From assembly GCF_036378875.1 (NCBI RefSeq), contig NZ_DASUVO010000140.1, positions 30,864 to 94,863 on the forward strand: a stretch of 64,000 nt of DNA, read 5' to 3'. The DNA comes from Actinophytocola sp. (GTDB lineage: Bacteria; Actinomycetota; Actinomycetes; Mycobacteriales; Pseudonocardiaceae). The notes under the pieces were generated by a model. It ran no database searches. It was not told the origin of the DNA and was given only the letters and a program-made list of their open reading frames with translations. This document shows positions 44,418-64,000 of the stretch, piece by piece; position 1 is the first letter of the stretch, and every line of letters begins with the position of its first letter. The position numbers were made by a program, and so were the translations under genes.

Positions 44418-44441
44418 TGACTTGAACACTCGTCCAAGTCA
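44418..44441. promoter_or_regulatory. TetR-type operator, copy 1: TGACTTGAAC-N4-GTCCAAGTCA
   Basis: Near-perfect palindrome in the 72-bp gap between the divergent acylase and TetR starts. Confidence 0.75.
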
Positions 44442-44457
44442 AGGGCAGGATGGCGCA

Positions 44458-45060
44458 ATGGCACGGGTACCGGTCGCTCAGCGCAGGTGGCAGCTGATCG
44501 AGGCGACCATCGCGCTGCTCTCCCGCGAGGGCGTCGGTGCCGCGTCGATCCGGCGGATCAGCGAGGAGGCGGACGTCCCGCTCGGCCTCGTGCACTACTG
44601 CTTCGCCTCGAAACAGGAGCTGATCGCCGAGACGATCCGGCAGCTGAACACGGAGAACACGACGGCGGCGCGGGCGGCGCTGTCCGTCCCGGCCGACGCG
44701 GGAACGGACCTGAGGAGCGCGCTCACCGCAGCGTTCCGGGCGTACTGGTCACTGGTCGAACGGTCGCCGAGGCGCCAGCTGCTCACCTACGAGCTGAACG
44801 CCTATGCGTTGCGCGACAAGGAGCTTGCCCCGATCGCCGAGCAGGCCCATCGCGAGCTGCTGACCAATGTGCGCGTCCTGCTCGACGAGATCGCGACGGC
44901 GACCGGCCGGCAGTGGACGGTGCCGCTGGACGACGTCGCCCGGCTGGTCGTCACGGTCACCGGCGGCGCCACCCTGAACTGGCTCAACGACAGGGACTCC
45001 ACGGCCGCGCTGACCACGGCAAACCTCGTCGTCGGCGCGCTCGACGCGCTCGCCACCTGA
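44458..45060 (+). CDS. TetR-family transcriptional regulator
   Basis: LIEATIALLSREGVGAASIRRISEEADVPLGLVHYCFASKQELI (tail of ORF 43405..45060). Confidence 0.92.
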   Translation: MARVPVAQRRWQLIEATIALLSREGVGAASIRRISEEADVPLGLVHYCFASKQELIAETIRQLNTENTTAARAALSVPADAGTDLRSALTAAFRAYWSLVERSPRRQLLTYELNAYALRDKELAPIAEQAHRELLTNVRVLLDEIATATGRQWTVPLDDVARLVVTVTGGATLNWLNDRDSTAALTTANLVVGALDALAT

Positions 45061-47446: not shown

Positions 47447-48577
47447 TCACACGTACGGAAGGTGCAGGTTGTCGACGGAGAACATCGCGTCCGTGCGGCC
47501 TTCGAAGAGGGGGACCAGGCGGCGGAAGTGGTCGCGCATCGCGGTTTCGAAGTCCGCTTCTCCGCTCAACAGCCAGGTCGCGCCGTCGAGTAGCTCGGGG
47601 AGGTCCTCGGTGATGCGTTCTGCCGACATGCTCGGTGAGCGGGGGCCGTCGTCCTCGACGGGGTCCGGTTTGTTGCCGAGCATGACGTAGCTCGGGAAGC
47701 GCTTCAGGTCGGGTAGGACCGAGTAGAACGGGACGCCGGGGTTGAAGTAGTACTCGGCCCAGTCGTTACCGGCCAGTGCCAGCCACGGGGTGCCGACCGC
47801 CATCGCGGCGAACGCGAAGCCCGTGTGCGGGGACAGGAACAGGTCGCAGCGTTCTACCGCGGCCAGCTGTCGAGCCAGCGGCACGTCCACCGCCCACGCC
47901 GCGTCCGGCACCACGTCCGCGATGGCGGTGAACTCCTCGCGGGTGAACGTGGTGTTGGTGCGGCCGTCCTCGGCCAGTTTGCCCACCAGGCAGAAGCGCG
48001 CCGTCGGCCAGCGCTCCGTGAAAGCGCTCAACACGCGGCGCCAGCTGGCCACTGACGGGTATCGCCACCTCGGGCTGCTGCCGCCGGGCAGCACCGCGAT
48101 CGTGGGGCCGCCGTCCGGGAGGAGTTCAGCGGCCCAGGTCCGCGCCTCGTCGGGCAGCGTCAGCTCGAGCCGGTTCTTCGGGTGGTACGACGGTCGTGGC
48201 GCGCCGATGGGAAGGTGACCCCGGCTGGCGCGGAAGTGCCTGGCAGCCAGGTCGTAGTAGCCAGCCAGTCCGGGGAACAGGTCGTGCTGCCACTGTTGGT
48301 GACCGCGAGGATCGTCGACGACCCAGTCCCACTCCGCCGGCACGTGCGAGAGCACGTCCGGGCTCGGCGGCTCGAACACGTCGACGTCCACCGTGTACAC
48401 CTCGTCGATGTGCTCGCACCACGACGCGAGCTCCACGGCCGTCTTCTCGAGCAACACCACACCGATACGCCGGTCCGGGTCGGCGCGACGGAAGCCGAGG
48501 GAGTACTGCAGGGCTTCCACGGCGTGACCGACCGGATGGCAGTAGACGAAGTTCACCAGTACTGACTCAGCGGGCAC
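47447..48577 (-). CDS. GT9 (heptosyltransferase-like, GT-B) glycosyltransferase
   Basis: IAVLPGGSSPRWRYP and LAAVERCDLFLSPHTGFAFAAMAVGTP resemble the GT9 C-terminal signature. Likely start GTG 48577. Confidence 0.65.
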   Translation of the reverse strand: MPAESVLVNFVYCHPVGHAVEALQYSLGFRRADPDRRIGVVLLEKTAVELASWCEHIDEVYTVDVDVFEPPSPDVLSHVPAEWDWVVDDPRGHQQWQHDLFPGLAGYYDLAARHFRASRGHLPIGAPRPSYHPKNRLELTLPDEARTWAAELLPDGGPTIAVLPGGSSPRWRYPSVASWRRVLSAFTERWPTARFCLVGKLAEDGRTNTTFTREEFTAIADVVPDAAWAVDVPLARQLAAVERCDLFLSPHTGFAFAAMAVGTPWLALAGNDWAEYYFNPGVPFYSVLPDLKRFPSYVMLGNKPDPVEDDGPRSPSMSAERITEDLPELLDGATWLLSGEADFETAMRDHFRRLVPLFEGRTDAMFSVDNLHLPYV

Positions 48578-48608
48578 ACCGCCAACCCTAGAACCGCGTG
48601 CGAACGGT

Positions 48609-49490
48609 TTACGGTGCCGGTGGTCGCCGTGCCGCGCGGTCCTCCGGTAGCGGGATGCCCGCCTGCCACTCCAGTTCGCGGAGCTGCTCGTCCACCGCGA
48701 ACCGCTGCGCTTCGTTCGTCGCGGACTCGAAGGCCTGCAGCAGGAGTACGTAGCCCTTCGCGGTCGCGGCGCGTCGTGTCGACGTGCTGCCGGGTTCGGT
48801 GAGGCGCAGCACCCGGTCGGCCAGCCGGTTGAGCCGGGCGTTCGTCCTGGCCCGCCAGTCGCGCCTGCGCCGCAGGACATACTCCGCCAGCGACCACACC
48901 TCGCGGACCAGGAAGGCGACGACCACCAGGAGGACCACACCCATCGCCGCCGACATGACCAGCACGATCTTCTCGACCGCGCCGTCGTTCGCGGGGCGTG
49001 GCGGGCCGCGGGCCGGTGGCGGTGTGCCGGGGAACGTCTCCGCCACGTGGGCGTCGAACGCACGCACGTACTCCTCGACGTGGACGGTCCAGTCATGGTC
49101 CGTGTCGAGGAGCGTCACGGCCTCCCGCGCCGTGGCGGTCAGGTTCCTTTCGTAGTAAGGGGATCCACCGTCGCAGGTCTTGATCGGCATTCTTGGGACG
49201 TCGTTCACCCAGAGCACGATCACGCCTGGCAGGATGTCCGCGAAATCGGCACACATGCCGGTGCGCTCACCCACGATCACCGCGATCGGGCGGTCACCGA
49301 TGATCCGCCGTGCCCGCTCGGCGTCGAAGATCCGCTCCGCGCCCGGTGCGACGTGGACCGACGTGTAGCGGAGTTCGTCGGGCAGCGCGGTCAGCTCGGC
49401 GGACTTGCGTGTCTCCGTCAGCACCACCCAGGTCGCTGACACCAGGATGATCAGCACGATCACCCAACCGTGCGGACGGCGCCAGGTCAC
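48609..49490 (-). CDS. Hypothetical membrane protein (two TM segments, basic cytoplasmic tail)
   Basis: N-terminal TM, extracellular region, second TM followed by RRRRDWRAR; GTGA overlap with the upstream gene. Confidence 0.65.
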   Translation of the reverse strand: MTWRRPHGWVIVLIILVSATWVVLTETRKSAELTALPDELRYTSVHVAPGAERIFDAERARRIIGDRPIAVIVGERTGMCADFADILPGVIVLWVNDVPRMPIKTCDGGSPYYERNLTATAREAVTLLDTDHDWTVHVEEYVRAFDAHVAETFPGTPPPARGPPRPANDGAVEKIVLVMSAAMGVVLLVVVAFLVREVWSLAEYVLRRRRDWRARTNARLNRLADRVLRLTEPGSTSTRRAATAKGYVLLLQAFESATNEAQRFAVDEQLRELEWQAGIPLPEDRAARRPPAP

Positions 49491-50560
49491 CGGTCCTCCT
49501 CACGGTCGCCCGCCACCACGAGCCCTTCCTCGGCGACCTCCCGCACCGCGGCCATCGCCTCGGGCGTGAGGGCCTGGTCGAAGAGCGCGCGTGCGGTGGC
49601 GTACCGCTCGGCGGCGGCCGGGACGTCGGCCTGGTCCTCGGCCAGCCTGGTGCCCAGCTCCTCGATCGACAGGTATGCCCTGGCCCGCGCCTCCCGCAGC
49701 CCTTCCCTGGTCTCGCGCCTGCGCAGCGCCCACCGCAGGTACAGGACGAGCAACATCGCCACGACCGTGGCAGCCGCCGCGACCAGCGTGACGACGATCG
49801 CGGAGCCGGCCAGGTCGACCTTCTCCGGCCGCGGCAGGTCGTACACCGGCCGAGCGGGCGGTTCGGTCATCCGGTCCAGGACGGCGGTCACCACGTCCGT
49901 CGAGCGACCGCGGTTGAGGAGGACCGGGCCGTAGGCGGCGTTCCGCGCGTGTTCGGCCCGATCGGCGCCGGGGCCGGCGAACTCGAGCCAGGCCCCGTGC
50001 GCGACGACGACCAGCTCGCCGGGGAAGCGAGCCGCCAGCCTGCCCGCGTAGTCGACGTACACCGGCCCCATCGGGACCCGCGCCAGGCGAACGCCGTCGC
50101 GGGGTTGGCTCACGGTCAACTGGTCGAGCTGCGCGTCCGTGGCGGGCACGGTCGCCGGTGACGCCTGTTCGCCGAGCACGACGCCGGTGACGTCACCGTA
50201 GGCGAGGACCTGCCGCAGAACCCGCTCGTCGGCCGTCGCGAGTGGCCGCTCGCTTTCGGTGCCCTCGTACCGCTCGATCCACAGCCCTTCGACAACCGTG
50301 AGCGCGACTCCGGTGTCGCCGGCCCACTTCAGGAGGGCGACCAACCCCGGCGGCAGACCGGACTGGGGAGCGAGCAGCACCCTCTCGTCGTCGGGCACCC
50401 TGGCCACATCGACGGTGGTGACCGCACCGGGCAGCCGCACGACCCGGTTCTGGGAGAGCTGGTCGATCAGCTGCTGTGGATCCGGCGGTTGGGCGGTGGC
50501 CGGTGAGCCGGACAGCAGCAGGCACACGGCCGCCGCGAGCACCGCTCCCACCGTTCGCAT
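49487..50560 (-). CDS. Hypothetical secreted, C-terminally anchored protein
   Basis: Signal peptide MRTVGAVLAAAVCLLLSGSPATA; TM IVVTLVAAAATVVAMLLVLYL followed by RWALRRRE. Confidence 0.7.
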   Translation of the reverse strand: MRTVGAVLAAAVCLLLSGSPATAQPPDPQQLIDQLSQNRVVRLPGAVTTVDVARVPDDERVLLAPQSGLPPGLVALLKWAGDTGVALTVVEGLWIERYEGTESERPLATADERVLRQVLAYGDVTGVVLGEQASPATVPATDAQLDQLTVSQPRDGVRLARVPMGPVYVDYAGRLAARFPGELVVVAHGAWLEFAGPGADRAEHARNAAYGPVLLNRGRSTDVVTAVLDRMTEPPARPVYDLPRPEKVDLAGSAIVVTLVAAAATVVAMLLVLYLRWALRRRETREGLREARARAYLSIEELGTRLAEDQADVPAAAERYATARALFDQALTPEAMAAVREVAEEGLVVAGDREEDR

Positions 50561-50788
50561 GGCGGGCAGCTTCGCACGCAAGTGCCTGCCCTGTCTGGCA
50601 AACGGCCGCTCCCGTACGACCGGAAAGTTCCGTTCCGGAGGACTCCGCCCCAACCTGAACATTCTAGGGACACAACGAGATCTCGAAGACGGGACGGGTG
50701 ATCAGCGTCACGGTCGGGCCCCCTATCATGGCGCCGTCTACTCCCCCTCCTCCCCCGAGTTCGTCGCTCTCGAAAGGGCTCAACGACC

Positions 50789-53090: not shown

Positions 53091-54257
53091 CTATCGGAGA
53101 ATGAGCGGGAGCGACTGCAGACCGGTGAAGTCCGGCGAGGGCTGGGAGACCGGCGGTCGTTCCGGGTCGGTGCGCAGGTCAGGGTAGCGGTCGTACAGGA
53201 TGTTCAGCGCGACCCGGCCCTCCAGCCGGCTCACCGACGTGCCAAGGCAGAAGTGCACACCGAGCCCCCAGGACAGGTGCAGGTTGATGTCGCGGTTCGG
53301 GTCGAACTCGTGTGGGTTCGGGAAGATGCGTTCCTCACGGTTGGCCGCGCCGATCCACACCGAGACGAGCCGGTCGCGCGGGATCGCGTGCCCGCTGACT
53401 TCCGTGTCGACCATGGTCGCCCGGATGATGCGCTGGAACGGCGGGTACATCCGCAGCGACTCCTCGAGCGCTCCCGGCAGCAGTGTCCGGTCGTCGAGGA
53501 TCCGCTTGGCCTGCACGGGGTTGATGTCCAGCGCCAGCACGGTGTTGGCGAGCATCGACGCGGTGGTGACGTGCCCGGCGATCAGCATCAGGTTGGCGAA
53601 GTTGACGACCTGGGCGTCGGTGAGCCGCTCGCCGTCCACCTCCGCCTGGACCAGGGCAGTGAGCATGTCGTCGCGCGGGGAGCGCCGACGGTCGGTGGTG
53701 TGTTCGAGTAGGTAGGCACGCAACTGCTTGATGTCGGCGACGCGCTGCTCCATCGCGGCCGCCACGTCCTCCAGCGCGTCCTTGTCGCTGTTGAGGTGCT
53801 TGGTCATCAGCTGCTTGAACCAGACCCGGTCGGACCCGGGAACGCCGAGCATCTCGGCGATCACGATCACCGGCAGCGGGTAGGCGAGCGACTCCACCAG
53901 ATCCATCCGGTCCCCGTCGCCGGCCTCGTCCAGCAGCTCGTGGGTCAGCGCGGCGACGCGCGGCTCCAGGTCGGCGACCATCCTCGGCGTGAACCCGCGG
54001 TTGACGATCTTGCGCAGCTGGGTGTGCTCGGGTGGATCGAGCCGCACCATGTTCCCGTCGGTCAGTTCCGTCGCGAACTTGAACTTGCTCGGCATCAGCC
54101 GCTGGGAGTTGCTGGAGAAGGTCGCGGGATCCAGCATGATCTTCTGCGCGTCGTCGTATCCGTACACGTGGTGGATTCGCGTGTCCTCGTCGAACCGGAC
54201 CTTCGCGGGCGGCAGCTCCCCGCGCATCCAGACGTGCTGCTCATGCGTGTCGAACAC
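53091..54257 (-). CDS. Cytochrome P450, EryK/CYP113-like macrocycle-tailoring type
   Basis: LDPPEHTQLRK, AYPLPVIVIAEMLG, IAGHVTT, EESLR and WGLGVHFCLG heme motif. Confidence 0.9.
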   Translation of the reverse strand: MFDTHEQHVWMRGELPPAKVRFDEDTRIHHVYGYDDAQKIMLDPATFSSNSQRLMPSKFKFATELTDGNMVRLDPPEHTQLRKIVNRGFTPRMVADLEPRVAALTHELLDEAGDGDRMDLVESLAYPLPVIVIAEMLGVPGSDRVWFKQLMTKHLNSDKDALEDVAAAMEQRVADIKQLRAYLLEHTTDRRRSPRDDMLTALVQAEVDGERLTDAQVVNFANLMLIAGHVTTASMLANTVLALDINPVQAKRILDDRTLLPGALEESLRMYPPFQRIIRATMVDTEVSGHAIPRDRLVSVWIGAANREERIFPNPHEFDPNRDINLHLSWGLGVHFCLGTSVSRLEGRVALNILYDRYPDLRTDPERPPVSQPSPDFTGLQSLPLILR

Positions 54258-54370
54258 GGGACTCCCTCGGTTTCCGCGACGTCCTTGCCCGGACAGACAG
54301 GAAGTTACCGGCGCCGGACATGACAGGGCATCACCAAAGCTTGTCGTTCTGTCTCCGGTGCCGGCCGGGA

Positions 54371-54388
54371 CTACCCGCGTTGGGGATG
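54371..54388 (+). promoter_or_regulatory. RifZ-type (LAL/LuxR) binding site, exact CTACC-N8-GGATG
   Basis: CTACC CGCGTTGG GGATG in the divergent P450/acyltransferase intergenic region. Confidence 0.75.
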
Positions 54389-54459
54389 GCCTCGGCGAAC
54401 GGCGTGGGCAAGCCTGCTAACGACGGTGCGAGAACCAGAACCCTGACTGGAGGCAATTC

Positions 54460-55677
54460 GTGACGACAGTTGGAGTTTGGCGTGCGCTGTCACCAACCGA
54501 GAAGATCCAGGCCGGGCGAGAGTCCTACATCGGGTTCTCGGTGCGCGCCGCAGGCCGACTGGATCTTGGTGCCCTGACGACTGCCTACGAGGCCGTGTGT
54601 CGCGCCTATCCGCAGTTCGCGGCCCGGCTGGAAGCCGGCGACGACGGACCTGTTTTCACGGCGTCCGACGCCTTGCCGGACGTCCGTGTCCACGACGGAG
54701 ACCCCGAACGCCCGTTGTCCGGTGTGGACGTGGCTCAGCACCGGGCGTTGAGCGCGCTCAACGTCGTACGCGACGGCGACGACGTGAGTGTGTGTCTGGT
54801 AACCCATCACGGCATCGCCGACGCCGACCACGCCATCGCTGTGTTCGCCGCACTGTGGTCCTGCTACACCGATGTCGTGGCCGGCCTGCCCGTGGACCTG
54901 CCCAGTCATCCGTTTCCCAGGTCGTTGGAGGACCTGCTGGCCGAGCGCGGCATCCATGGTTCTGCCCCCACCGAAGCGGGTGTGGCGGTCCAACCGGTAT
55001 CCGAACAGCCCGCGGTCGTCCGGCACGTGGTCCAACATCGCCTGACGGTGGCGGAGACGACGGCACTGGCGGAACTCGGCCACCGTGAGCACGTGACGAT
55101 CAACGGCTTGTTGTCGGGCGCCATACTTCTCGCCGAGGCCGAGATTCGCGGGCTGCCGGTGACCGACCTGGTGTACCGGTTCACGGTGAACCTCCGCGGT
55201 CATCTCACTCCGCGGGTCGGTCCGACCGAGGGTACGAACGTGCTCGGCGGCGCGGGTTTCCAGGCCACCAACGGAATGGAACCCACCGCGGTGTCGATCG
55301 GTCGCGCGGTCGGTGAGCAGCTACGCGCGGGGCTGGCCGACGGTTCCATCCAGCGCAGCCTCCTCGACCTCGTCGCGCAGTCGAGGCCCGGCGCGAAACC
55401 GTGGGATCCGAGCAAGGCCCCCGCCATTGTCAGCATGATGAACTGGGGACCGATACCACCCATGCGCACACCGGAAGGTCTACTGTTGACCAACTTCCGC
55501 TCCGCCTCCCGCATCAGGGAGACCTCGGCCATGGGTGGCTACGTGGTGAGCACCTTCGACGGACGCACAGGTATCGATCTCACGTGGCCCGTCGACGATC
55601 CGGAACTGCCGAGGCGCCTCGACTGCCTGCGTGAACAGTTGGGCCGTTTGCGGTTGACCGACAAGCTTAACGGCTGA
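54460..55677 (+). CDS. PapA5-type acyltransferase resembling rifamycin C-25 O-acetyltransferase Rif-Orf20
   Basis: RALSPTE...LTTAYEAVCRAYPQFAARL N-terminus, HHGIADA (HHxxxDG-like) catalytic motif and FTVNLRGHL. Confidence 0.8.
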   Translation: MTTVGVWRALSPTEKIQAGRESYIGFSVRAAGRLDLGALTTAYEAVCRAYPQFAARLEAGDDGPVFTASDALPDVRVHDGDPERPLSGVDVAQHRALSALNVVRDGDDVSVCLVTHHGIADADHAIAVFAALWSCYTDVVAGLPVDLPSHPFPRSLEDLLAERGIHGSAPTEAGVAVQPVSEQPAVVRHVVQHRLTVAETTALAELGHREHVTINGLLSGAILLAEAEIRGLPVTDLVYRFTVNLRGHLTPRVGPTEGTNVLGGAGFQATNGMEPTAVSIGRAVGEQLRAGLADGSIQRSLLDLVAQSRPGAKPWDPSKAPAIVSMMNWGPIPPMRTPEGLLLTNFRSASRIRETSAMGGYVVSTFDGRTGIDLTWPVDDPELPRRLDCLREQLGRLRLTDKLNG

Positions 55678-55680
55678 GGC

Positions 55681-57111
55681 GTGCCGATGTCCGCCGCCGG
55701 ACTGCTGACCACGACCGACGACGACCTGCTGCACCGGTTCACGGAGTCGGCCAACACACAGGACCGGGTGCTGGTCCCGACGCCCTCGTTCCGCAGCTGG
55801 TTCGCCGAACGCGTGCAGGCCAACAGCTATCGGGTCACGCGAGTTCCGTTCGGCGGGCTGTCCGGCTGGCGGTTCCAACCGGACACCGGGAACCTCGTGC
55901 ACGACAGCGGCCGGTTCTTCACGATCGAAGGACTGTCGGTGAACACCGACCACAGCGAGCGCGCGCACTGGACGCAGCCGATCATCCGGCAGCCGGAGAT
56001 CGGCATCCTCGGCATTCTGGTCAAGGAGTTCAACGGTGTCCTGCACTGCCTGATGCAGGCCAAGATGGAGCCGGGCAACGTCAACCTGACCCAGCTCTCC
56101 CCCACCCTGCAGGCCACCCGCAGCAACTACACCCGGGTACACAAGGGAAAGCCCATTCCGTACCTGGAGTACTTCATGGCACCGTGGCGTGGCCGGGTGC
56201 TGGTCGACGTGCTGCAGTCCGAGCAGGGCGCGTGGTTCCTGCACAAGCGCAACCGCAACATGGTCATCGAGGTCACCGACGACATCCCGGTGCTCGAGGA
56301 CTTCTGCTGGCTGACGCTGGCGCAGCTGCACGAGCTGCTGCACGTCGACAACCTGGTCAACATGGACTCGCGGACGGTGCTGTCCGGCATCCCGTTCGCC
56401 GCGCCGGTCGACCGGCCGTCCATGCTCGACGAGGACTCGTTCCGCGGCGCGCTCCTGCGGTCCCTGGCCGAGCGCAAGGGCGCGCTGCACGAGCTGCCAT
56501 CGTTGCTGAGCTGGTTCACCGAGGCCAAGACCAAGCACAGCCTTGACCAGCAACGGATCCCGCTCAACCAGGTGTCCAGGTGGCACGCCACCGACGAGCA
56601 CATCAGCCGTGACGACGGCAAGTACTTCACGGTGATCGGCGTCGACGTCCGTGCGAGCAACCGCGAGGTGGCGCACTGGACGCAGCCGATGCTGGCGCCG
56701 GTCGGCCAGGGGCTGCTCGCCTTCCTTGCCAAGCGGATCGGTGGCGTGCTGCACGTGCTCGTCCAGGCCCGCACGCAGGCGGGCACGTTCGACGTGATCG
56801 AGATGGCCCCGACCGTGCACTGCACGCCGGAGAACTACGCTGGCGCCGAGCCGCCGCCGTACCTACGAGAGGTGCTGGAGGCCCCACCCGAGGCGATCAA
56901 GCACGACGTCGTGCACTCGGAGGAGGGCGGCCGCTTCCACCACGCGGAGAACCGCTACCTGGTCGTCGAGGTCGGTGACGACTTCCCCGTCGAGGTGCCA
57001 CCGGACTTCATCTGGATGACCGCGCGGCAGGCCACCGATCTGGTGCGGTACAGCAACTACTTCAACGTCGAGGCACGCAGCCTGCTGACGTGCCTGCACA
57101 CCCTGTGGTGA
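55681..57111 (+). CDS. NDP-4-keto-6-deoxyhexose 2,3-dehydratase (EryBVI/OleV/Rif-Orf18 family)
   Basis: LVHDSGRFF, WTQPIIRQPEIGILG, LMQAKMEPGN, QLSPTLQATRSNY, LQSEQGAWFLHKRNRN and HSEEGGRF. Confidence 0.95.
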   Translation: MPMSAAGLLTTTDDDLLHRFTESANTQDRVLVPTPSFRSWFAERVQANSYRVTRVPFGGLSGWRFQPDTGNLVHDSGRFFTIEGLSVNTDHSERAHWTQPIIRQPEIGILGILVKEFNGVLHCLMQAKMEPGNVNLTQLSPTLQATRSNYTRVHKGKPIPYLEYFMAPWRGRVLVDVLQSEQGAWFLHKRNRNMVIEVTDDIPVLEDFCWLTLAQLHELLHVDNLVNMDSRTVLSGIPFAAPVDRPSMLDEDSFRGALLRSLAERKGALHELPSLLSWFTEAKTKHSLDQQRIPLNQVSRWHATDEHISRDDGKYFTVIGVDVRASNREVAHWTQPMLAPVGQGLLAFLAKRIGGVLHVLVQARTQAGTFDVIEMAPTVHCTPENYAGAEPPPYLREVLEAPPEAIKHDVVHSEEGGRFHHAENRYLVVEVGDDFPVEVPPDFIWMTARQATDLVRYSNYFNVEARSLLTCLHTLW

Positions 57112-57161
57112 GCCGGACGCGCGAAGAAGATCGCCGCCGATAGTCTGATGAGGAATCGGTG

Positions 57162-57182
57162 AACCGTTGCCGCACAACGGTT
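57162..57182. promoter_or_regulatory. Perfect inverted repeat AACCGTTG-N5-CAACGGTT upstream of the multicopper oxidase
   Basis: aaccgttg ccgca caacggtt, about 35 bp before the oxidase ATG. Confidence 0.45.
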
Positions 57183-57217
57183 GTACTCCCATGAGAAAAC
57201 GCAGGAGAAAATACCTG

Positions 57218-59197
57218 ATGGATGATTCCGTCGACCGTCGAACCTTCCTCGCCTCGGCCGTGCTCGGGTCCGCGGGCGTCGTGGCGGGCGTGAGCCTGCT
57301 CGGTGCGAGTGCCCCGGGTGCGACGGCCTCGGCGGCGACAGGCCGCGGACGATTAGCACCGTCCGCGGCGCCGAACTTCGGTCTCACCAAGTTCCTCGAC
57401 GCGCTGAGGATTCCGCCGGCGATCCGGTCATCCTCGCGACAGAACCTGGACGATCTCACGATCACGATGACCAATGCGCGGATACGGCTGCACTCGCAGC
57501 TGCCCGAGACCACGGTGTGGGCCTACGAGGGACAGTTCCCCGGCCCGACCATCGAGGTGCGTAGCGGCAGGCGGCTGCGGGTCGCGTGGACCAACGAGCT
57601 CGAGGGCACGGTCCCGCTCGTGGCGGTGCGGGCGCCGTTCGCGCAGCCGACACCGGCGAACGTGCCCGGCTACCGCAACCCGGACGGCAGCCTGCCCGCC
57701 GGGGTCGAGCTGATCGACGGTGTCGCCGAACTGCCGCCGTGGAACGTCGTGCACCTGCACGGCGCGCTGACGAACGGCGGCAACGACGGCTGGGCGCACA
57801 ACGGCATGCTGCCGGGGAGCACGCAGCTCACCGAGTACCCGAACCGCCAGGCGGCGACGGCACTCTGGTACCACGACCACGCGATGGCCGTGACGCGCTT
57901 CAACGTGTTCGCCGGTCTGGCCGGCATGTACCTGATCCGGGACGACGAGGAGGACGCGCTCGGACTCCCGGGCGGTGACCACGAGATCCCGCTGATCATC
58001 GCCGACCGCAACCTGGACACCGACCCCGCGACCGGCGCGCTCACCGGTCAACTGCTGTTCAAGTTCCAGTACCTGCCAGCGAACGGCATAGCTGCCCCCG
58101 TCACCGGCCCGTTCACCCTCGTCAACGGCGTCATCTGGCCGCACCTCGACGTCGAGAAGCGCTGGTACCGCTTCCGCGTGCTCAACGCGGCGAACGCCCG
58201 GTTCTTCCGTCTCAACCTGGTCGACGAGGCGGGCACCGTCCAGAACGACGCGGTCCGGATCGCGGGCACGGACTCCGGCCTGCTGCCCGCCCCGGCGCCG
58301 ATGCCCGCGGGCGGGCTGACACTCGCCCCGGCCGAGCGGGCCGACCTGCTGATCGACTTCAGCCGGTTCCCGGGGCAGCGGCTGCGTCTCGTCAACACCG
58401 GTGCCACGGTCGAGCCGGACATCATGGAGTTCCGCGTCGGGAACCAGGGCCAGCCCGACCCGTTCCAGTTGCCGGCCCGACTGTCCACATCGTACGTCCG
58501 ACTGGCACATGGCACGACCGTGCCGGAGGACCACGACGAGGTGTTCGTGGCGACGACCTCTGCCGGTGTGGCCGGCCGAGCGCACCCGGAGATGTGGGAG
58601 CTGACGGAGATCACCGACCCGGACGAGCTGCCGGAGCAGTTCCCTGCGGAGGGGGTCATCCAGCTCACCGACCCCGCGACGGGAAACGTGCGAACGTTCC
58701 GGAAGGTCGCGCGCCTGTTCGACGACACGACGACGATCTTCATCGACCGAGGCCGGTGGGTGGTGTGGAACCTGCTCCAGCTCGGCGGGGCCCCGCACCC
58801 GACGCACATCCACATGGCGCGGTTCCAGCTGCTGACCCGGCGGACCTTCACCGACCTGACGGCTTTCGACATCGCGGCCGGCGGCACCACCCGGCCGCTG
58901 CCCGCACCGAACGACGGCCCGCCGATCGAGAAGTACGAGGAGGGCTGGAAGGAAACCTTCAACCTGCGGCAGGGTGAGTGGATCACGGTCGCCGGCCAGT
59001 TCGAGGGCGCGACCGGCGAGTTCATGTACCACTGCCACATCCTCGACCACGAGGACGAGGGCATGATGCGCCCCTTCGTCGTACACCCCGCCGAGGTGGC
59101 CCGGTTCCACATGCACTCGGGTGGCTCCAACCACGGCGGGCATTCAGCCGCCTCCAGCAACACCGCGCCCTCGAGCGGCCACGGTGGGCACTCGTAA
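57218..59197 (+). CDS. Tat-exported multicopper oxidase (PhsA/CotA-like) with a His-rich tail
   Basis: DRRTFL twin-arginine signal; all four Cu motifs (VHLHG, WYHDH, HPTHIH, YHCHILDHEDEGMM); AGGAGA RBS. Confidence 0.92.
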   Translation: MDDSVDRRTFLASAVLGSAGVVAGVSLLGASAPGATASAATGRGRLAPSAAPNFGLTKFLDALRIPPAIRSSSRQNLDDLTITMTNARIRLHSQLPETTVWAYEGQFPGPTIEVRSGRRLRVAWTNELEGTVPLVAVRAPFAQPTPANVPGYRNPDGSLPAGVELIDGVAELPPWNVVHLHGALTNGGNDGWAHNGMLPGSTQLTEYPNRQAATALWYHDHAMAVTRFNVFAGLAGMYLIRDDEEDALGLPGGDHEIPLIIADRNLDTDPATGALTGQLLFKFQYLPANGIAAPVTGPFTLVNGVIWPHLDVEKRWYRFRVLNAANARFFRLNLVDEAGTVQNDAVRIAGTDSGLLPAPAPMPAGGLTLAPAERADLLIDFSRFPGQRLRLVNTGATVEPDIMEFRVGNQGQPDPFQLPARLSTSYVRLAHGTTVPEDHDEVFVATTSAGVAGRAHPEMWELTEITDPDELPEQFPAEGVIQLTDPATGNVRTFRKVARLFDDTTTIFIDRGRWVVWNLLQLGGAPHPTHIHMARFQLLTRRTFTDLTAFDIAAGGTTRPLPAPNDGPPIEKYEEGWKETFNLRQGEWITVAGQFEGATGEFMYHCHILDHEDEGMMRPFVVHPAEVARFHMHSGGSNHGGHSAASSNTAPSSGHGGHS

Positions 59198-59211
59198 CCA
59201 CTAACACAACG

Positions 59212-59248
59212 ACCGACCCGCAGTGCCCATGGGGCGCTGCGGGTCGGT
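59212..59248. terminator. Bidirectional hairpin terminator
   Basis: 17-bp stem ACCGACCCGCAGTGCCC / GGGCGCTGCGGGTCGGT (one G-T pair) with a 3-nt loop, between the convergent oxidase and P450 genes. Confidence 0.8.
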
Positions 59249-59271
59249 TCGGTCCTGGTCGGCGTACGCCT

Positions 59272-60534
59272 TTATGGTGCGTCCCAGGTGATCGGCAGTT
59301 CCTGCACGCCATAGGCGAGCATGTCGGGGCGCAGGGGGACCTCCTCTGGCGGCACCGTGAGGCGAAGATTGGGCAGGCGTCGCAACAGTTCGACGTAGCC
59401 GACCGCCAGCTCCATCCGGGCCAGTTGCTGGCCGAGGCACTGGTGCACGCCGTGGCCGAACGCCATGTGTGAGGTCCGCACCCGGTTCAGGTCCAGCTTG
59501 TCCGGCTCCTTCCAGTGCTCACTGTCCCAGTTGACGGCCAGCAGCGAGATCACCACGGTCGAGCCGGCCGGGATGTGCTCGCCGCCGAGTTCCAGGTCCT
59601 CCTTGGGGAACCGGAAGACTCCGGTGTTGCTGACCGACAGGAAGCGCAGCAGCTCCTCGACCGCGTCGCCGACGCGGGACGGGTCGTCGCGCAGCATGGC
59701 GAGTTGCTCGGGGCGCTGCAGCAACACGAAAATGCCCAGCCCCAACATTCTCGCCGTGGTTTCGAAGCCGGCGATGAGCACCAGGTTGATCATATTGATC
59801 AACTCGTCGTCGGTGAGCGCCGGATCGGCCCCTGCGTGGTGGATCAGGCCGGAGATGATGTCGTCGACCGGGTTCTCGCGCTTGTCCGTCACCAGCCGCT
59901 GTATGAACGCGCGCAGGGCTTCGTAGTTCTCCTGCGCCACCGTGATCGGCACGTCCATCTGCATCAGTGCCGCCGCGCGTTCCTGGAACTCCGCCCGGTC
60001 CTCGTAGCGCACCCCGAGCATCTCGCAGATCACCAGCGAGGGCACCGGGAACGCGAAGTCCGCCATCAGATCGGCGGTGTTTCCCTTGGCCAGCATGGCA
60101 TCCAGCTGCGCGGTGACGATCTCCTCGATCCGTTCGCCGAGTATGCGGATCCGGCGGACCGTGAACTGCCCGGTGAGCAACTTGCGGTAGCGGGAGTGCT
60201 CCGGCGGATCCATGTTGATGAACGACCCGGCGCGCGCCTTGTCGTCCCGCATCTTCGCCTTGGTTTCCTCGGACAGCTGTTTGAACCTGGGGTGGTAGGT
60301 GAACCGGTCGGCGGAGAACCGCGGGTCCGACAGCACCGCACGAGCCTCTTCGAACCCGGACACCAACCAGAACGGGTCACCGGTGGGCAGCGCCGCCTTG
60401 GTGATCGGGGTTCGCTCGTTCTGGTTCGCCAGGGCCGACGGCAGCGTGAACGGGTCTTCGCGGTAGAAGAACTCGAGGGGAAGCGGTGCGCGGAGTGATT
60501 CGCCGGCTGGCGGATTCTCGGTCTTCTGGGTCAC
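59272..60534 (-). CDS. rif16: Cytochrome P450 (CYP105 clan), Rif16-like
   Basis: IAGFETT, EELLR and FGHGVHQCLG. Distinctive segments (REDPF, YHPRFK, RDDKARAGSFINMDPPEH, LIHHAGADPALTDDELIN, C-terminal WDAP) match my recall of A. mediterranei Rif16. Coupled directly downstream of a split transketolase. Confidence 0.8.
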   Translation of the reverse strand: MTQKTENPPAGESLRAPLPLEFFYREDPFTLPSALANQNERTPITKAALPTGDPFWLVSGFEEARAVLSDPRFSADRFTYHPRFKQLSEETKAKMRDDKARAGSFINMDPPEHSRYRKLLTGQFTVRRIRILGERIEEIVTAQLDAMLAKGNTADLMADFAFPVPSLVICEMLGVRYEDRAEFQERAAALMQMDVPITVAQENYEALRAFIQRLVTDKRENPVDDIISGLIHHAGADPALTDDELINMINLVLIAGFETTARMLGLGIFVLLQRPEQLAMLRDDPSRVGDAVEELLRFLSVSNTGVFRFPKEDLELGGEHIPAGSTVVISLLAVNWDSEHWKEPDKLDLNRVRTSHMAFGHGVHQCLGQQLARMELAVGYVELLRRLPNLRLTVPPEEVPLRPDMLAYGVQELPITWDAP

Positions 60535-61460
60535 CGCGAAGCCTCCCCGTCCTCAAGGAAGCCGGTGATCGACTCGGCCAGGCTCGCGGCGTCCAGCCCG
60601 TGCAGCCGGTCGTGGTCCGCGGCACTTCCATAGGCGCGCACCTCCTGGTCCCGCCGGACACCGAGTGATCGCAGCCGGTGCGGCACGTCGCCGAGCGCCT
60701 CGGCCACCTCGTGCGCGGAGGTCCCACGCAGATAGGGCTCGACCATCACCACGTTCGGCGCCGATGCCACCACCGCCGAGCGCAGACCCGCGTGGTCGAA
60801 CGGCCGGACCGTGGACGCGTACAGCACTGTCACGTCCATAGTGGACGTCGCGGCGAGGACGGCCGCCAGCACCGGACCGACCGCGACCACCACACCGGCG
60901 CCACCCTGGCGCAGCACGGTGAACCCGTCCGAGAGCGGAATCGCCTCGCTGTGGACCTTGTCGGACAGTCGCAGGTAGACCCGGCCGTCACCGGCGATCG
61001 CCTTCCGCAGCAGCGGCTCGACCTCGTCCTCGTGGCCCGGCACGTGCACGGTCCAGCCGGGCACCGTGTCGAGCAGCGCCACGTCGCCGGGCGCCTGGTG
61101 GGTCCGGCCCCTCGGTATGTCGTCGTAGGAACTGCCGATGCCGACCAGCACGGCGCCGACGTCCTGGTGTCCGAGGCTGATCTTGATCTGCTCGAACGGC
61201 CGCTCGACCAGGAACGGCGCGTAGGTGTGCACCACCGGCCGGTACCCGGCCAGCGACAGGCCGCCCGCGATCCCGATCATCGCCTGTTCACGGATCCCGA
61301 CGTTGACCACCCGCTCCGGATACCGGGCCCGCGCCTCGTTGAAGAACGGTGACGAGATGTCCGCGGTCACCAGGGCCAGCTTGGAGTTGGTGGACAAGGA
61401 CTCGACCACGGTCTCGACGAAGACGAGACGCATCAGCTTTCGGGTCACCTGAGTGGTCAC
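60531..61460 (-). CDS. rif15b: Split transketolase, pyrimidine-binding/C-terminal subunit (Rif15b-like)
   Basis: VNVGIREQAMIG, HTYAPFLVERPFEQIK, THQAPGD and DRLHGLD; its stop overlaps the P450 start. Confidence 0.8.
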   Translation of the reverse strand: MTTQVTRKLMRLVFVETVVESLSTNSKLALVTADISSPFFNEARARYPERVVNVGIREQAMIGIAGGLSLAGYRPVVHTYAPFLVERPFEQIKISLGHQDVGAVLVGIGSSYDDIPRGRTHQAPGDVALLDTVPGWTVHVPGHEDEVEPLLRKAIAGDGRVYLRLSDKVHSEAIPLSDGFTVLRQGGAGVVVAVGPVLAAVLAATSTMDVTVLYASTVRPFDHAGLRSAVVASAPNVVMVEPYLRGTSAHEVAEALGDVPHRLRSLGVRRDQEVRAYGSAADHDRLHGLDAASLAESITGFLEDGEASR

Positions 61461-61533
61461 GACTGGTCCGCCTCCCCGGATTCAGATGTGTTGGTCACGT
61501 TGGGGAAGGCACGTCCTGTTGACACAGGAAGTG

Positions 61534-62223
61534 TCATGCCATTCCCCCCGCGCTGTCGTGGATCTCCGCGACCACGGCCTGTGGCCGCCCGTCGCGTGCC
61601 TGGGTCAGCGCCCGGTACAGCTCGTCGTGGTCGCGACCGTCCACAGTGGTCGTGAGCCAGTTCTCCGACTCGAAGCGCCTGGCGATGCCACCCGGCCAGC
61701 CGAGGCTCGCCGAGGAGTTGTCGATCACGATCGCGGTGAGCTGGTCGAGCCCGAGCCGCCCGGCGATCGCGATCGCCTCGTGGTTGCTGCCCTCGTCGAA
61801 CTCACCGTCGCCCAACATCACGACGACCCGGGCGCTGCGGCCGTCGGCACGCAGCCCGAGCACGGTCCCCACGCCGAGCGGGAGCCCTTGCCCGAGGGAG
61901 CCACTGCTGATCTCGACCCCGGGCACCAGCACCCGGTCCGGGTGCAGACCGAGCGGCGAGCCGAGCTTGGCCCAGGTGTTCAACTCGTCCGGGTCGATGA
62001 AGCCCTTCGCGGCGAGCACCGCGTAGTAGGGCATCGGCGCGTGGCCCTTGGAGAGATAGAACCGGTCCCGGTCGGGATCGTCGATGTTCGCCGGCGACAC
62101 GTTGAGCACGCGGTCGTAGAGCACCCAGATCGCGTCCTGCGTCGACGTCAGCGACAACATGTGCGCGTTGCCCCCGACCATCCTGTCGATGAAGCCTTGT
62201 AACGTCTGTTCTGTCGTCTGCAC
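61534..62223 (-). CDS. rif15a: Split transketolase, ThDP-binding N-terminal subunit (Rif15a-like)
   Basis: DRDRFYLSKGHA, GLHPD, SSGSLGQGL and GDGEFDEGSNHEA...VIDN ThDP motif. Start is GTG 62223 or TTG 62238. Confidence 0.8.
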   Translation of the reverse strand: MQTTEQTLQGFIDRMVGGNAHMLSLTSTQDAIWVLYDRVLNVSPANIDDPDRDRFYLSKGHAPMPYYAVLAAKGFIDPDELNTWAKLGSPLGLHPDRVLVPGVEISSGSLGQGLPLGVGTVLGLRADGRSARVVVMLGDGEFDEGSNHEAIAIAGRLGLDQLTAIVIDNSSASLGWPGGIARRFESENWLTTTVDGRDHDELYRALTQARDGRPQAVVAEIHDSAGGMA

Positions 62224-62365
62224 TGGTTCCACCTGCAACGCTTCCCGGGTTGTGGTGATCAGGCCGGCTTGCGGACCGTCAGGAGAAGTCCAGTCTTGCC
62301 CAGACCGCTCGTCCAGGACATCACCAACGTGGGTAGCGGTGGCAGGCCCCGGCACCGGCCAAGCC

Positions 62366-62383
62366 CTATCAGGTTGAGGGATG
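62366..62383 (+). promoter_or_regulatory. RifZ-type binding site, CTATC-N8-GGATG (one mismatch)
   Basis: CTATC AGGTTGAG GGATG in the divergent transketolase/glycosyltransferase intergenic region. Confidence 0.65.
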
Positions 62384-62528
62384 CTCGGCCGGTCGCCCCT
62401 TCCCTATCGTTCGAAAGCGGTGCCGTAACGCGCCCGCGCACGCCAGGGCGCGCGAGGCGGCGACACCGACGAGGTGGACGACGAGGTCGTAGCGAGCCAC
62501 CATCCGCACGGACTGCCGCCAGGAGGAC

Positions 62529-63683
62529 TTGTTGAAGGTCATCATTCTTTCCGGGATCACCCCCTCGACGTTCTTCGCTCATGTCTCGCTCGCAACGGCC
62601 CTGCGCGACGCCGGGCACCAGGTGATGGTGACCGCCGCCGCCGACGACGTGATCCCGAGCATCGCGGCGGCCGGGCTCCCCGCCCTACCGGTCATGGAGC
62701 CGGGACTGACCCGAGAGCAGATCTTCGCCGAGGCCGGGCTGGCACGGGTGCCGGAGGACGCCGTCGAACGTGAGTACATGGCGGGTCGGTGGTTCGCGCT
62801 CATCGAGACCAAGCCGCTCGACGCCCTCCTGGCGTTCGCCAAGGACTGGCGCCCGGATGTCGTCGTCGGGGGCATGCTGGCCTATGGCGCGCCGCTGCTG
62901 GCGGCCCGTCTCGGGGTCCCGTACGTGCGGCAGGCCTGGGACATCCACAACCCGAAACTGTTCGACGCGGGGGCGGCGTTCCAGTTGCGGGAGGCGTTGG
63001 CGGAGCTGGGGCTGGACGGCCTTCCCGAACCCGACATGATGATCGAGGTCATGCCGCCGAGCCTGCGCACACCGGAGACCAAGCCCGCGCAGGCGATGCG
63101 GTGGATCGCGGGCAACTCGCAGTGTCGCCTGGAACCGTGGATGTACACCAAGGGTGCGGACACCCGGATCGGCGTCACCATCGGGACGGGAGTGGCGGAC
63201 TACAACCAGTACGACTTCGTCGAGGGCATCGTCAAGAACATCGCCACCCTCGACGTCGAGGTGGCGGTGGCGGTCCCCCAGGCCGCCGTCCCCGTCCTGC
63301 GGGAACGCCTGGACGAGAACGTCCCGGTGGGCTGGGCCCCGCTCGACGTCCTCGCACCCACCTGCGATGTCCTGGTGCACCAGAGTGGTGGCAGCACCAT
63401 GATGACGGCGTTGAGCTTCGGGGTGCCTCAGATCCTGCTCCCCGACGCCGGGCAGTTCCGCCAGGGCGACATGGCACGCCGCCTCGTCGAGGCCGGCGCC
63501 GCACTGACACTCTCCCACGAGCAGGCCACGACCGAGATCATCGCTGAGACCTGCCAAGAGATGATCTCCAACCCGAGCTACGCCGCGGCCGCGGCCGGGC
63601 TCGCCAAGGAGATCGCCGCGCTGCCCCTGCCATCCGAGGTGGCCAGGCGCATCGAGTGGCTCGTCCACGAAACGTCCGCATGA
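62529..63683 (+). CDS. GT1 natural-product deoxysugar glycosyltransferase (UrdGT2/EryCIII-like)
   Basis: AGGAGG RBS + TTG; LATALRDAGHQV, WRPDVVVG, GWAPLDVLAPTCDVLVHQSGGSTMMTALSFGVPQILLP. Confidence 0.9.
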   Translation: MLKVIILSGITPSTFFAHVSLATALRDAGHQVMVTAAADDVIPSIAAAGLPALPVMEPGLTREQIFAEAGLARVPEDAVEREYMAGRWFALIETKPLDALLAFAKDWRPDVVVGGMLAYGAPLLAARLGVPYVRQAWDIHNPKLFDAGAAFQLREALAELGLDGLPEPDMMIEVMPPSLRTPETKPAQAMRWIAGNSQCRLEPWMYTKGADTRIGVTIGTGVADYNQYDFVEGIVKNIATLDVEVAVAVPQAAVPVLRERLDENVPVGWAPLDVLAPTCDVLVHQSGGSTMMTALSFGVPQILLPDAGQFRQGDMARRLVEAGAALTLSHEQATTEIIAETCQEMISNPSYAAAAAGLAKEIAALPLPSEVARRIEWLVHETSA

Positions 63684-63709: not shown

Positions 63710-64000
63710 ATGCGGTTCAACGCTTTGCGGGTCGCGGTCGCGGCGATGGTGGCCCTGTCCTTGGCTGTGCCGGCTCAGGCCAGCCAGCGGCAGGAGGAGC
63801 CGGTTTCGCTGGTGGGCAAGAAGATCCTGTTGGCCAACGACGACGGCGTCCAGGCGGCGAACCCCAACGGATCGGACGGCCGGGGCCTTTACGTGCTTCG
63901 GCGGGCGTTGTGTCGTGCTGGCGCCGACGTGGCGATCGTCGGACCATGGACACAACAGAGCGGACGAAGCCGGGCCACGTCGGGGGCCGGCGTCGTGTCC
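63710..64000 (+). CDS. surE: Secreted SurE-like acid phosphatase/nucleotidase, truncated by the window end
   Basis: Manual translation: MRFNALRVAVAAMVALSLAVPAQA (signal peptide)...KILLANDDG...QQSGRS, the SurE NDDG and QSG motifs. Confidence 0.75.
   Translation, partial: MRFNALRVAVAAMVALSLAVPAQASQRQEEPVSLVGKKILLANDDGVQAANPNGSDGRGLYVLRRALCRAGADVAIVGPWTQQSGRSRATSGAGVVS

Follow-up and report, generated by a model that had tools for sequence, protein, structure and literature searches.

A probable rifamycin-congener gene cluster of the kanglemycin family: its outer tailoring end in Actinophytocola DNA

The classical rifamycins SV and B carry no sugar. The steps leading from SV to B have been described (PMC6002545), and A. 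mediterranei rif7 and rif18 are homologues of kng26 and kng27 of the kanglemycin cluster (Peek 2018 Supp. Table 3, PMC6175910). In this kanglemycin (kng) cluster, found in Amycolatopsis vancoresmycina NRRL B-24208, the K-sugar position is C-27 and roles have been proposed for kng22-28, those of kng26-28 being bioinformatic proposals and not the outcome of gene-by-gene experiments (PMC6175910). Kanglemycins are active on rifampicin-resistant RNA polymerase via extra contacts of the C-27 sugar and the K-acid (PMC6175910). RifCon6 and RifCon12, two metagenomic clusters, come from the same study (Peek et al. 2018, Supp. Tables 6 and 7).

The DNA analysed here, a stretch of 64,000 nucleotides from Actinophytocola sp. 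referred to as the window, was annotated with gene calls from third-position GC and domains from Pfam. The source is probably a metagenome-assembled genome of an uncultured Actinophytocola. Judged from sequence, the part of the window from 53.1 to 64.0 kb is very probably the outer end, with tailoring genes, of a rifamycin-congener gene cluster that belongs to the kanglemycin family. Four transcription units run from two divergent promoter regions with RifZ-type boxes: a kng28-type P450 (unit 1), a Rif20-type acyltransferase, a kng27-type 2,3-dehydratase and a copper oxidase (unit 2), Rif15A, Rif15B and Rif16 (unit 3), and a kng26-type glycosyltransferase (GT) with a kng25-type SurE (unit 4), which continues past the window end. 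The features are:

53091..54257, minus strand: cytochrome P450, kng28 orthologue, 388 aa, outermost cluster gene (Pfam p450)
54326..54391, no strand: divergent promoter region, two putative RifZ-type boxes (consensus match and PWM)
54460..55677, plus strand: PapA5/Rif20-type acyltransferase, 405 aa, heading its unit (PF16911, E 6e-51)
55681..57111, plus strand: NDP-4-keto-6-deoxyhexose 2,3-dehydratase, kng27 orthologue, 476 aa (PF03559, E 2e-163)
57167..59197, plus strand: multicopper oxidase, kng31 homologue, phenoxazinone-synthase-like, at most 676 aa (Cu-oxidase_2/_3)
59272..60534, minus strand: Rif16-type cytochrome P450 (rifamycin L to O/B, ester-to-ether; best PDB match Rif16 5YSM/5YSW)
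60531..61460, minus strand: Rif15B-type transketolase subunit, pyrimidine-binding and C-terminal domains (Pfam Transket_pyr)
61534..62223, minus strand: Rif15A-type transketolase subunit, ThDP-binding, 229 aa (Pfam Transketolase_N)
62316..62386, no strand: divergent promoter region, two putative RifZ-type boxes (consensus match and PWM)
62532..63683 (start 62529/62532), plus strand: GT1 glycosyltransferase, kng26 orthologue, 383 aa (Pfam EryCIII-like N and C)
63710..64000, plus strand: SurE-like gene, kng25 orthologue, start only, the window end cutting the gene (PF01975 SurE, E 6e-7 over 96 aa)

To the left of the P450 lie an amidase, Asp23 and genes of no known function, none of them rif-like.

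The RifZ box consensus reportedly given by Li et al. in 2017 is CTACC-N8-GGATG. This motif was validated empirically across loci, and 95 of its occurrences in rif/kng-type loci served to build the weight matrix (PWM). Each of 32 rif-type loci contains it 1-8 times (3-8 times in most full-length 21-kb loci), against 0-1 times in each of 7 non-rif loci, and the boxes are specific to rif-type clusters. Only four sites in the 64 kb exceed 12 bits, all in the two intergenic regions, and the other 53 kb contain none. In the first region, the strong box at 54368-54391(+) scores 22.6 bits, and its core at 54371-54388(+), CTACCCGCGTTGGGGATG, matches the consensus exactly and lies 72 bp 5′ of the acyltransferase-dehydratase-oxidase unit; the weak box at 54326-54349(−), with 13.9 bits, is directed at the P450. 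In the second region, the box on the GT side at 62363-62386(+) (core 62366-62383, CTATCAGGTTGAGGGATG, one mismatch) is with 32.8 bits the best site of the window, and that on the rif15A side at 62316-62339(−) (core 62319-62336, one mismatch) scores 20.7 bits. Orthologous genes elsewhere are preceded by the stereotyped box sequences of the region 62316-62386. The initial annotation had placed a RifZ-type box before the units of the dehydratase and the GT, and both units do have one, but none belongs to the dehydratase itself, which is the second gene of its unit, behind the acyltransferase.

Orthologues of kng25 (start), kng26, kng27, kng28 and kng31, and likewise of kng37/rif20, kng40A/B and kng41, are all found in the window, the shared set being 72-90% identical where measured, and RifZ-type boxes stand ahead of the units in both clusters. 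The gene order differs. In the kng cluster of Amycolatopsis the dehydratase is directly 5′ of the GT, with rif15/16, oxidase and acyltransferase elsewhere, whereas in the Actinophytocola window these genes are inserted among the kng28, kng27 and kng26 orthologues. RifCon6 (orf42-53) and RifCon12 (orf36-46) have the order of the window, namely P450 / acyltransferase, dehydratase, copper oxidase / Rif16, Rif15B, Rif15A / GT, SurE (Peek et al. 2018, Supp. Tables 6 and 7), except that SurE (326 aa) is present in RifCon6 only and RifCon12 is without it. The protein lengths in RifCon6/RifCon12 are near-identical to those of the window (P450 388/386, dehydratase 474/476, copper oxidase 658/656, P450 426/421, the two transketolase subunits, and GT 383), although the sequences have diverged. 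As a candidate for RifCon12 orf39, the eDNA protein P0016 was rejected for its misfit in length and kng26 identity, P0008 fitting better. A JGI soil contig has the gene order of the window and a GT 90% identical to that of the window, and an 81-base exact search of JGI metagenome contigs gave no match. The gene set and order were already described in 2018 (Peek et al.). It had been proposed earlier that the C2 branch and a 2-deoxysugar could make a new combination; this is unsupported because kng, RifCon6 and RifCon12 all unite these genes, the kng cluster combining its rif15A/B and rif16 homologues (kng40A/B, kng41) with the K-sugar genes and the two RifCon clusters having the exact order of the window.

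The 2,3-dehydratase and GT1 genes had been described as intact, and this was confirmed by end-to-end orthologue alignments over 475/476 aa and 380/383 aa, respectively, with no frameshift or stop. The dehydratase, separated from the acyltransferase by a gap of 3 nt, shows 89-91% identity to the kng27-type (90% to kng27 of A. vancoresmycina), 54-57% to the rif18-type, and 52-59% across the rif18-type and all other dehydratases. Its closest solved structure is EvaA (PDB 4J7G), both halves of which are matched (E 1.6e-142), and this enzyme of another pathway informs on fold and donor class only. The GT is 80-83% identical to the kng26 clade (81% to kng26), 62-66% to the rif-orf7 clade, and 82% to the closest eDNA GT in the database. 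In a neighbour-joining tree it falls with kng26 (95% bootstrap) and groups with eDNA and Actinophytocola sequences at 98%. Full-length matches were obtained with the GT structures 4RIE/4RIG/2P6P (E about 1e-95); 4RIE and 2P6P, which we take to be the D-olivosyltransferases LanGT2/UrdGT2, belong to other pathways and acceptors and likewise inform on fold and donor class only.

GT1 enzymes can inactivate rifamycins and macrolides, and a second GT of the macrolide family is located at 3708-5072 in the window. That the GT at 62532-63683 serves self-protection by inactivating rifamycin in the manner of Rgt, and not the building of the product, is nevertheless extremely improbable, given that it scores nothing against the Rgt model (NCBIfam NF000354, 800 bits needed), is a kng26 orthologue within a sugar cassette, and has biosynthetic enzymes, presumably D-olivosyltransferases, as its nearest solved relatives. 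The GT at 3708-5072 was itself rejected as an Rgt, with 33 of 800 bits.

The outermost P450 is 86-87% identical over 388 aa to the kng27-adjacent P450 in A. vancoresmycina and six related Amycolatopsis loci, is 32-49% identical to other rif-cluster P450s, and has the length of RifCon6 orf53; help of this type of enzyme in forming the methylenedioxy bridge of the K-sugar is a prediction only (Peek et al., PMC6175910). The start of SurE is 73-82% identical to the SurE-like gene behind the GT in ten distinct kng26-clade genome loci, counted as those whose sequence continues beyond the GT, and in these the order after the GT is SurE, O-methyltransferase, 3-ketoreductase and 4-ketoreductase.

The classical rif cluster (A. 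mediterranei / A. rifamycinica) has in common with the window the enzyme families of rif-orf7, rif-orf18, rif15A/B, rif16 and rif20 as well as the RifZ-type boxes, whereas its GT and dehydratase belong to paralogous clades (62-66% and 54-57% to those of the window) and it has neither a kng28-type P450 nor SurE. It is also without the copper oxidase (Peek et al. 2018, Supp. Table 3). In A. rifamycinica the GT (65%) and the dehydratase (54%) have paired boxes ahead of each. Because non-glycosylating rifamycin clusters such as that of A. rifamycinica own a dehydratase, a GT and identical boxes, the presence of these would not by itself be diagnostic of glycosylation, and the argument of the initial annotation for a glycosylated rifamycin fails in this respect. 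Its conclusion is retained on other grounds, since dehydratase, GT, P450 and the SurE start are orthologous to the kanglemycin K-sugar genes (kng27 90%, kng26 81%, kng28 87%, kng25 start 74-82%). The prediction of a sugar-bearing rifamycin for this cluster type is thereby supported, and so is that of 3,4-O-methylene-digitoxose at C-27 as the sugar.

Sugar genes that are silent or relic, with aglycones as the only products, would correspond to the state of rif-orf7 and rif-orf18 in the classical producers. Intact GT and dehydratase genes are retained behind RifZ-type boxes in A. rifamycinica, A. kentuckyensis and other rif-type loci, and yet rifamycins SV and B are known to have no sugar. The genes of the window are however in the other clade, that of the source organism of the K-sugar-bearing kanglemycins, and the cassette has kept its order and sequence in several soil contigs and in no fewer than ten distinct genomes, with dN/dS about 0.25, which makes silence a highly improbable state here. 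Relative to the kng orthologues, dN/dS was 0.24 for the dehydratase, 0.28 for the GT and 0.24-0.28 on all three sugar genes, values that are rough since dS is compressed in DNA of 70% GC. The three sugar genes are under purifying selection. No sequencing run held more than 13% of the sampled words, giving no read or RNA support for expression.

In unit 3, the start of Rif15A was set at 62223 because its relatives have 215-231 aa and the box falls inside the longest ORF. This subunit is 69-86% identical to its relatives, the Rif15B-type subunit 75-91% to rif15B-position genes, and the Rif16-type P450 66-92% to rif16-position genes, with full-length matches (E 9e-209) to 5YSM/5YSW, the structures of Rif16 (PMC6002545). 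A two-subunit transketolase and a Rif16-type P450 are thereby predicted within one unit, as is typical of the L/B branch of rifamycin biosynthesis with its Rif15 transketolase and its P450 Rif16 (Qi et al. 2018). The acyltransferase exceeds the cutoff of the NCBIfam PapA5 subfamily (462 bits, cutoff 396), is 63-70% identical to rif20-position genes of other clusters, has RifCon6 orf52 and RifCon12 orf45 as counterparts, and is a probable 25-O-acetyltransferase. The copper oxidase, the true start of which may be further 3′ because its relatives have 656-665 aa, matches PDB 3GYR (E 9e-155) and scores 709 bits with NCBIfam PhsA, under the cutoff. Its identity is 71-80% to copper oxidases in clusters of the kng type and in rif clusters of Actinomadura and Micromonospora, with 72% to the kng homologue of A. 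vancoresmycina NRRL B-24208.

The Rif15/Rif16 genes and the copper oxidase sit inside the K-sugar cassette and share RifZ-type promoters with it. Because they are wedged in this way, it is suggested, as a rather doubtful proposal, that a glycosylated intermediate is processed along the branch from S via L to O/B, with the oxidase as the enzyme converting SV to S, and with two alternative outcomes. The first would be a rifamycin not described so far that bears both the K-sugar and a glycolate at C-4. In the second, the one-carbon bridge that kanglemycin V2 has on its naphthalene ring would come from Rif15/Rif16 and the oxidase, and the sugar O-methyltransferase and the P450 would not be its source. 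Were the proposal true, the copper oxidase would be the long-suspected enzyme oxidising SV to S.

No NDP-glucose synthase or 4,6-dehydratase is present in the 64-kb window, as is also the case for the kng cluster (PMC6175910), and no gene of the LuxR family, to which RifZ belongs, was found within the 64 kb, the relatives having one or two a few kb past the 4-ketoreductase. A kng22-type 4-ketoreductase of Actinophytocola sp., 77% identical (P0136, HEX6359332.1), is a candidate for the window's own contig, having been found on one of equal length (102,603 bp), and as such adds to the case for a glycosylating cluster type. The PKS, the AHBA genes, RifZ, the O-methyltransferase and the 3-ketoreductase of this cluster we infer by synteny only. 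With the PKS outside the window, K-acid production is decided elsewhere, and genes for the ethylmalonyl-specific AT8, carboxylase, mutase and CoA-transferase were not found in the 64 kb.

Whether the product would also have the ethyl branch and K-acid, as in RifCon6 and the kanglemycins, was weighed against a congener of the RifCon12 type, whose cluster would have an AT8 specific for methylmalonyl units, would be devoid of K-acid genes, would place the K-sugar on a core otherwise like that of rifamycin, and might include a second set of genes for an amino sugar. RifCon12 owns the identical terminal block, and the eDNA GT P0008, 82% identical to that of the window, fits RifCon12 orf39 in length and in its 77% identity to kng26. 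An Actinophytocola MAG (L008; GT 83% identical) is also of this sort, as its GT is not followed by SurE and the contig bearing its 4-ketoreductase has another GT (P0062, 59%). In contrast, the window has SurE, as do kng and RifCon6, and no second rif7-like GT on a 102,603-bp contig was found among the best 120 GT matches. A kng30-like carboxylase beta subunit of Actinophytocola sp., 90% identical (P0208, HEX6354501.1) and on a different contig (103,370 bp), is probably from the window's own assembly. The closest soil relatives (L040, L041) own K-acid genes, 4-8 kb past the 4-ketoreductase. On these grounds the balance tips slightly towards the full kanglemycin type, and the sugar-only congener is regarded as possible though on the whole unlikely.

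In the proposed pathway to the K-sugar, the dehydratase would send NDP-4-keto-6-deoxyglucose down the 2,6-dideoxy route, and the 3-ketoreductase and 4-ketoreductase, expected just past the window, would yield NDP-digitoxose. The 3,4-O-methylene bridge would be closed by the O-methyltransferase and the kng28-type P450. The predicted role of the GT is transfer of the K-sugar to the hydroxyl at C-27 of the ansa chain, replacing the O-methylation by Rif14 of rifamycin SV, and the Rif15/Rif16 genes and the oxidase would work on the naphthoquinone end like their kng homologues.

A diverged member of the family, from a genus that had no previous link to kanglemycins, adds to the sequence diversity of GT, dehydratase and P450, which could serve to place the K-sugar on other ansamycins. 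No new question is opened; what is sharpened is the role of the conserved Rif15/Rif16 genes in sugar-bearing congeners and the question whether the conserved copper oxidase is the rifamycin SV-to-S enzyme. The ORF of 1118 aa at 41239-44595, tried as an rpoB beside the rif cluster, was rejected and encodes a protein of the penicillin-amidase family.

Across the window, in which the G+C content lies at 66-76%, about 48 genes were called by third-position GC and nearly all were annotated with Pfam. The first 53 kb is unrelated to rifamycin and holds transporters, a SARP-type regulator, a nitrilase/radical-SAM set, a penicillin-amidase-family protein, a GT87 and several unknowns. The rif-like end contains the following genes.

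Genes of the rif-like end, from gene calling and Pfam
53091-54257, minus strand, P450
54460-55677, plus strand, PapA5/Rif20-type acyltransferase
55681-57111, plus strand, NDP-hexose 2,3-dehydratase
57167-59197, plus strand, multicopper oxidase
59272-60534, minus strand, P450 (rif16-like)
60531-61460, minus strand, transketolase subunit
61534-62223, minus strand, transketolase subunit
62532-63683, plus strand, GT1 glycosyltransferase
63710 onward, plus strand, first 96 codons of a SurE-like gene

No PKS was found in the 64-kb window by gene calling and Pfam, and the rif-like block is therefore probably the outer margin of a cluster with its core further to the right. The initial annotation described the dehydratase and GT1 genes as intact, in agreement with the structure matches of the dehydratase to EvaA (4J7G) over both halves (E 1.6e-142) and of the GT to biosynthetic GT1 structures along its entire length (E ~1e-95), and with the uninterrupted full-length alignment of both to their closest relatives. 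It also placed each gene in a unit preceded by a RifZ-type box, the consensus of which is reportedly CTACC-N8-GGATG. With at most one mismatch, this motif was found 1-8 times per locus in 32 rif-/kng-type loci (3-8 times in most full-length 21-kb loci) and 0-1 times per locus in 7 unrelated loci, and the box forms across the rif-/kng-type loci are strongly stereotyped (CTATCAGGTYGRGGGATG, CTACCCRCGTTGGTGATG and CTACCACGTTGGGGGATG). When the whole window was scanned with a weight matrix built from the sites in these loci, four sites exceeded the threshold of 12 bits. All of them are confined to the two intergenic regions between divergent genes in the rif-like end; the other 53 kb had none.

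RifZ-type boxes in the window, weight matrix >12 bits
54326-54349, minus strand, RifZ-type box
54368-54391, plus strand, RifZ-type box
62316-62339, minus strand, RifZ-type box
62363-62386, plus strand, RifZ-type box

By motif counts and matrix scan, the boxes are real and far above chance. Both units are preceded by a box as annotated, but the dehydratase has none of its own: in its unit, acyltransferase-dehydratase-oxidase, it comes second, 3 nt after the acyltransferase.

Intact genes under pathway boxes had been taken to indicate a glycosylated product, an argument that proved insufficient. Rifamycin SV and B carry no sugar, yet classical rifamycin-type loci, such as those of A. rifamycinica (L032), A. 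kentuckyensis (L021) and Micromonospora okii (L028), also have a GT and a 2,3-dehydratase with paired boxes of the same kind before each; such genes and boxes alone are therefore not predictive. For kng26 and kng27, two K-sugar genes of the kanglemycin (kng) cluster, the listed homologues in A. mediterranei are rif7 and rif18 (Peek et al. 2018, PMC6175910). Paired RifZ-type boxes lie before the rif-orf7/rif-orf18 homologues of L032 (9878-9937 and 14769-14817) and likewise of L020-L023 and L031, which suggests that the 'silent' sugar genes of classical non-glycosylating clusters also belong to the pathway regulon.

The anticipated sugar-bearing rifamycin was nevertheless supported as a prediction, on orthology to the K-sugar genes. 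A genome scan with an alignment of GT relatives as query, one genome per species, returned 38 loci, among them that of the kanglemycin producer Amycolatopsis vancoresmycina NRRL B-24208 (L006). The 2,3-dehydratase is 90% identical to kng27 of this locus and 54-57% to rif18-type proteins, the GT 81% to kng26 and 62-66% to rif-orf7-type proteins, and the flanking P450 87% to kng28 and 32-49% to other rif-cluster P450s. The copper oxidase is 72% identical to kng31 and has no classical counterpart. In an NJ tree the window GT grouped with a JGI soil protein (90% identical), an eDNA protein and an Actinophytocola MAG (98% bootstrap), and these with the kng26 group (95% bootstrap), rif-orf7 proper being placed elsewhere. 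The SurE fragment shares 73-82% identity with the SurE-like gene 3' of the GT in kng-type loci, and dN/dS against the kng orthologues was 0.24-0.28 for the three sugar genes, a rough figure in such GC-rich DNA.

Two genomes hold one GT from each clade. In A. ultiminotia (L001/L010) and Amycolatopsis sp. NPDC059021 (L005/L014) a kng26-clade GT with the K-sugar reductase/methyltransferase set occurs together with a rif-orf7-clade GT, which in L001 is accompanied by aminotransferase, epimerase and DegT-type genes; a kng27-type dehydratase is absent beside the GT in both genomes, which may represent a doubly glycosylated or amino-sugar congener type. L025 (MAG MFD04935.bin.3.412) has a kng27-type dehydratase at 14438-15865, 89% identical to that of the window, and its GT, at only 66% identity, lies outside the kng26 clade; a given dehydratase clade thus does not always go with the same GT clade.

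The pairing of a C2 branch with a 2-deoxysugar had been thought a possible new combination. In the kng cluster, homologues of rif15A/B and rif16 (kng40A/B, kng41) and the copper oxidase already occur together with the sugar genes (PMC6175910), and the pairing is thus the normal state of the family. The gene arrangement is likewise already published: the terminal parts of RifCon12 and RifCon6, two clusters from soil metagenomes (Peek et al. 2018, PMC6175910, Supplementary Tables 6 and 7), read 4-ketoreductase, aldo-keto reductase, O-methyltransferase, SurE (RifCon6), GT of 383 aa, transketolase A and B, rif16-like P450, copper oxidase, 2,3-dehydratase of 476/474 aa, acyltransferase and P450 of 386/388 aa, which is the window's order in reverse with matching protein lengths. 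A JGI soil contig whose GT is 90% identical to that of the window shares this order, its cluster likewise ending at the P450. The window cluster thus adds a new and diverged member to the kanglemycin/RifCon family, probably in Actinophytocola.

Whether this member is of the sugar-only RifCon12 type, a live rival, or of the full kanglemycin type depends on genes beyond the window. All 10 distinct kng26-clade genome loci extending past the GT continue with SurE, O-methyltransferase, 3-ketoreductase and 4-ketoreductase. A search with the kng22 4-ketoreductase returned a 77% identical Actinophytocola sp. protein (P0136, HEX6359332.1) on a contig of 102,603 bp, also the length of the contig of the window GT. 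The K-acid gene kng30 returned a 90% identical Actinophytocola sp. carboxylase (P0208, HEX6354501.1) on a 103,370-bp contig, and neighbouring accession numbers hint at the same assembly. In the close soil relatives L040 and L041, regulators, rif5, rifR, carboxylase, CoA-transferase and mutase lie within 4-8 kb of the 4-ketoreductase. SurE is present in the window, as in kng and RifCon6, and no second rif7-like GT on the 102,603-bp contig was among the 120 best GT matches. On these grounds we lean towards the full kanglemycin type.

Enzyme families, orthology, operon layout and shared cis-elements were read from the sequence. Peek et al. describe the K-sugar as beta-3,4-O-methylene-digitoxose attached at C-27 and propose roles for kng22-28 (PMC6175910). 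Classically, Rif20 acetylates C-25 and Rif14 methylates C-27; rifamycin S gains a C2 unit through Rif15, yielding L, which Rif16 converts to O/B (PMC6002545). Here the GT would take over the C-27 hydroxyl otherwise methylated by Rif14, and the kng28-type P450 would close the methylene bridge with the O-methyltransferase. The copper oxidase (57167-59197, plus strand), encoded between the dehydratase and rif16-rif15BA, resembles phenoxazinone synthase (3GYR, E 9e-155; PhsA model, 709 bits, below cutoff) and is conserved across rif clusters of kng type and of Actinomadura and Micromonospora. Qi et al. (PMC6002545) explicitly left open the possibility of an oxidase for the conversion of SV to S in vivo, and the kng31 homologue is, speculatively, a reasonable candidate for this step ahead of Rif15.

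Elsewhere in the window, 50 kb from the rif-like block, a second GT1 (3708-5072, plus strand) follows a patatin-like lipase gene, which it overlaps in the longest-ORF call; it is a macrolide-family glycosyltransferase (TIGR01426, 410 bits, above cutoff) and not an Rgt-type enzyme. Two nitrilases, a GNAT-AIR-synthase fusion, a radical SAM protein, a DsrE-like protein, an amidohydrolase and a flavin monooxygenase (34115-41112, minus strand) form a run that resembles the Nit1C nitrilase cluster; several longest-ORF calls overlap here, so starts need revision. The SARP-type regulator (1207 aa; Trans_reg_C, BTAD, AAA_16; 24855-28478, minus strand) adjoins an MFS transporter gene in the most GC-rich part of the window (75-76%). 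The penicillin-amidase-family protein (1118 aa; 41239-44595, minus strand) has a C-terminal F5/8 type C (discoidin) domain, its gene adjoining those of the GT87 glycosyltransferase and a DUF72 protein. Three ORFs of 549, 293 and 391 aa (47447-50662, minus strand) have coding-type GC3 and no Pfam match; two of them share ~490 bp in different frames, which means that one call or more must be wrong. A 123-aa short-chain dehydrogenase fragment (15178-15549, plus strand) and a 162-aa LysR-type protein with the HTH domain only (16906-17394, minus strand) look like truncated genes.
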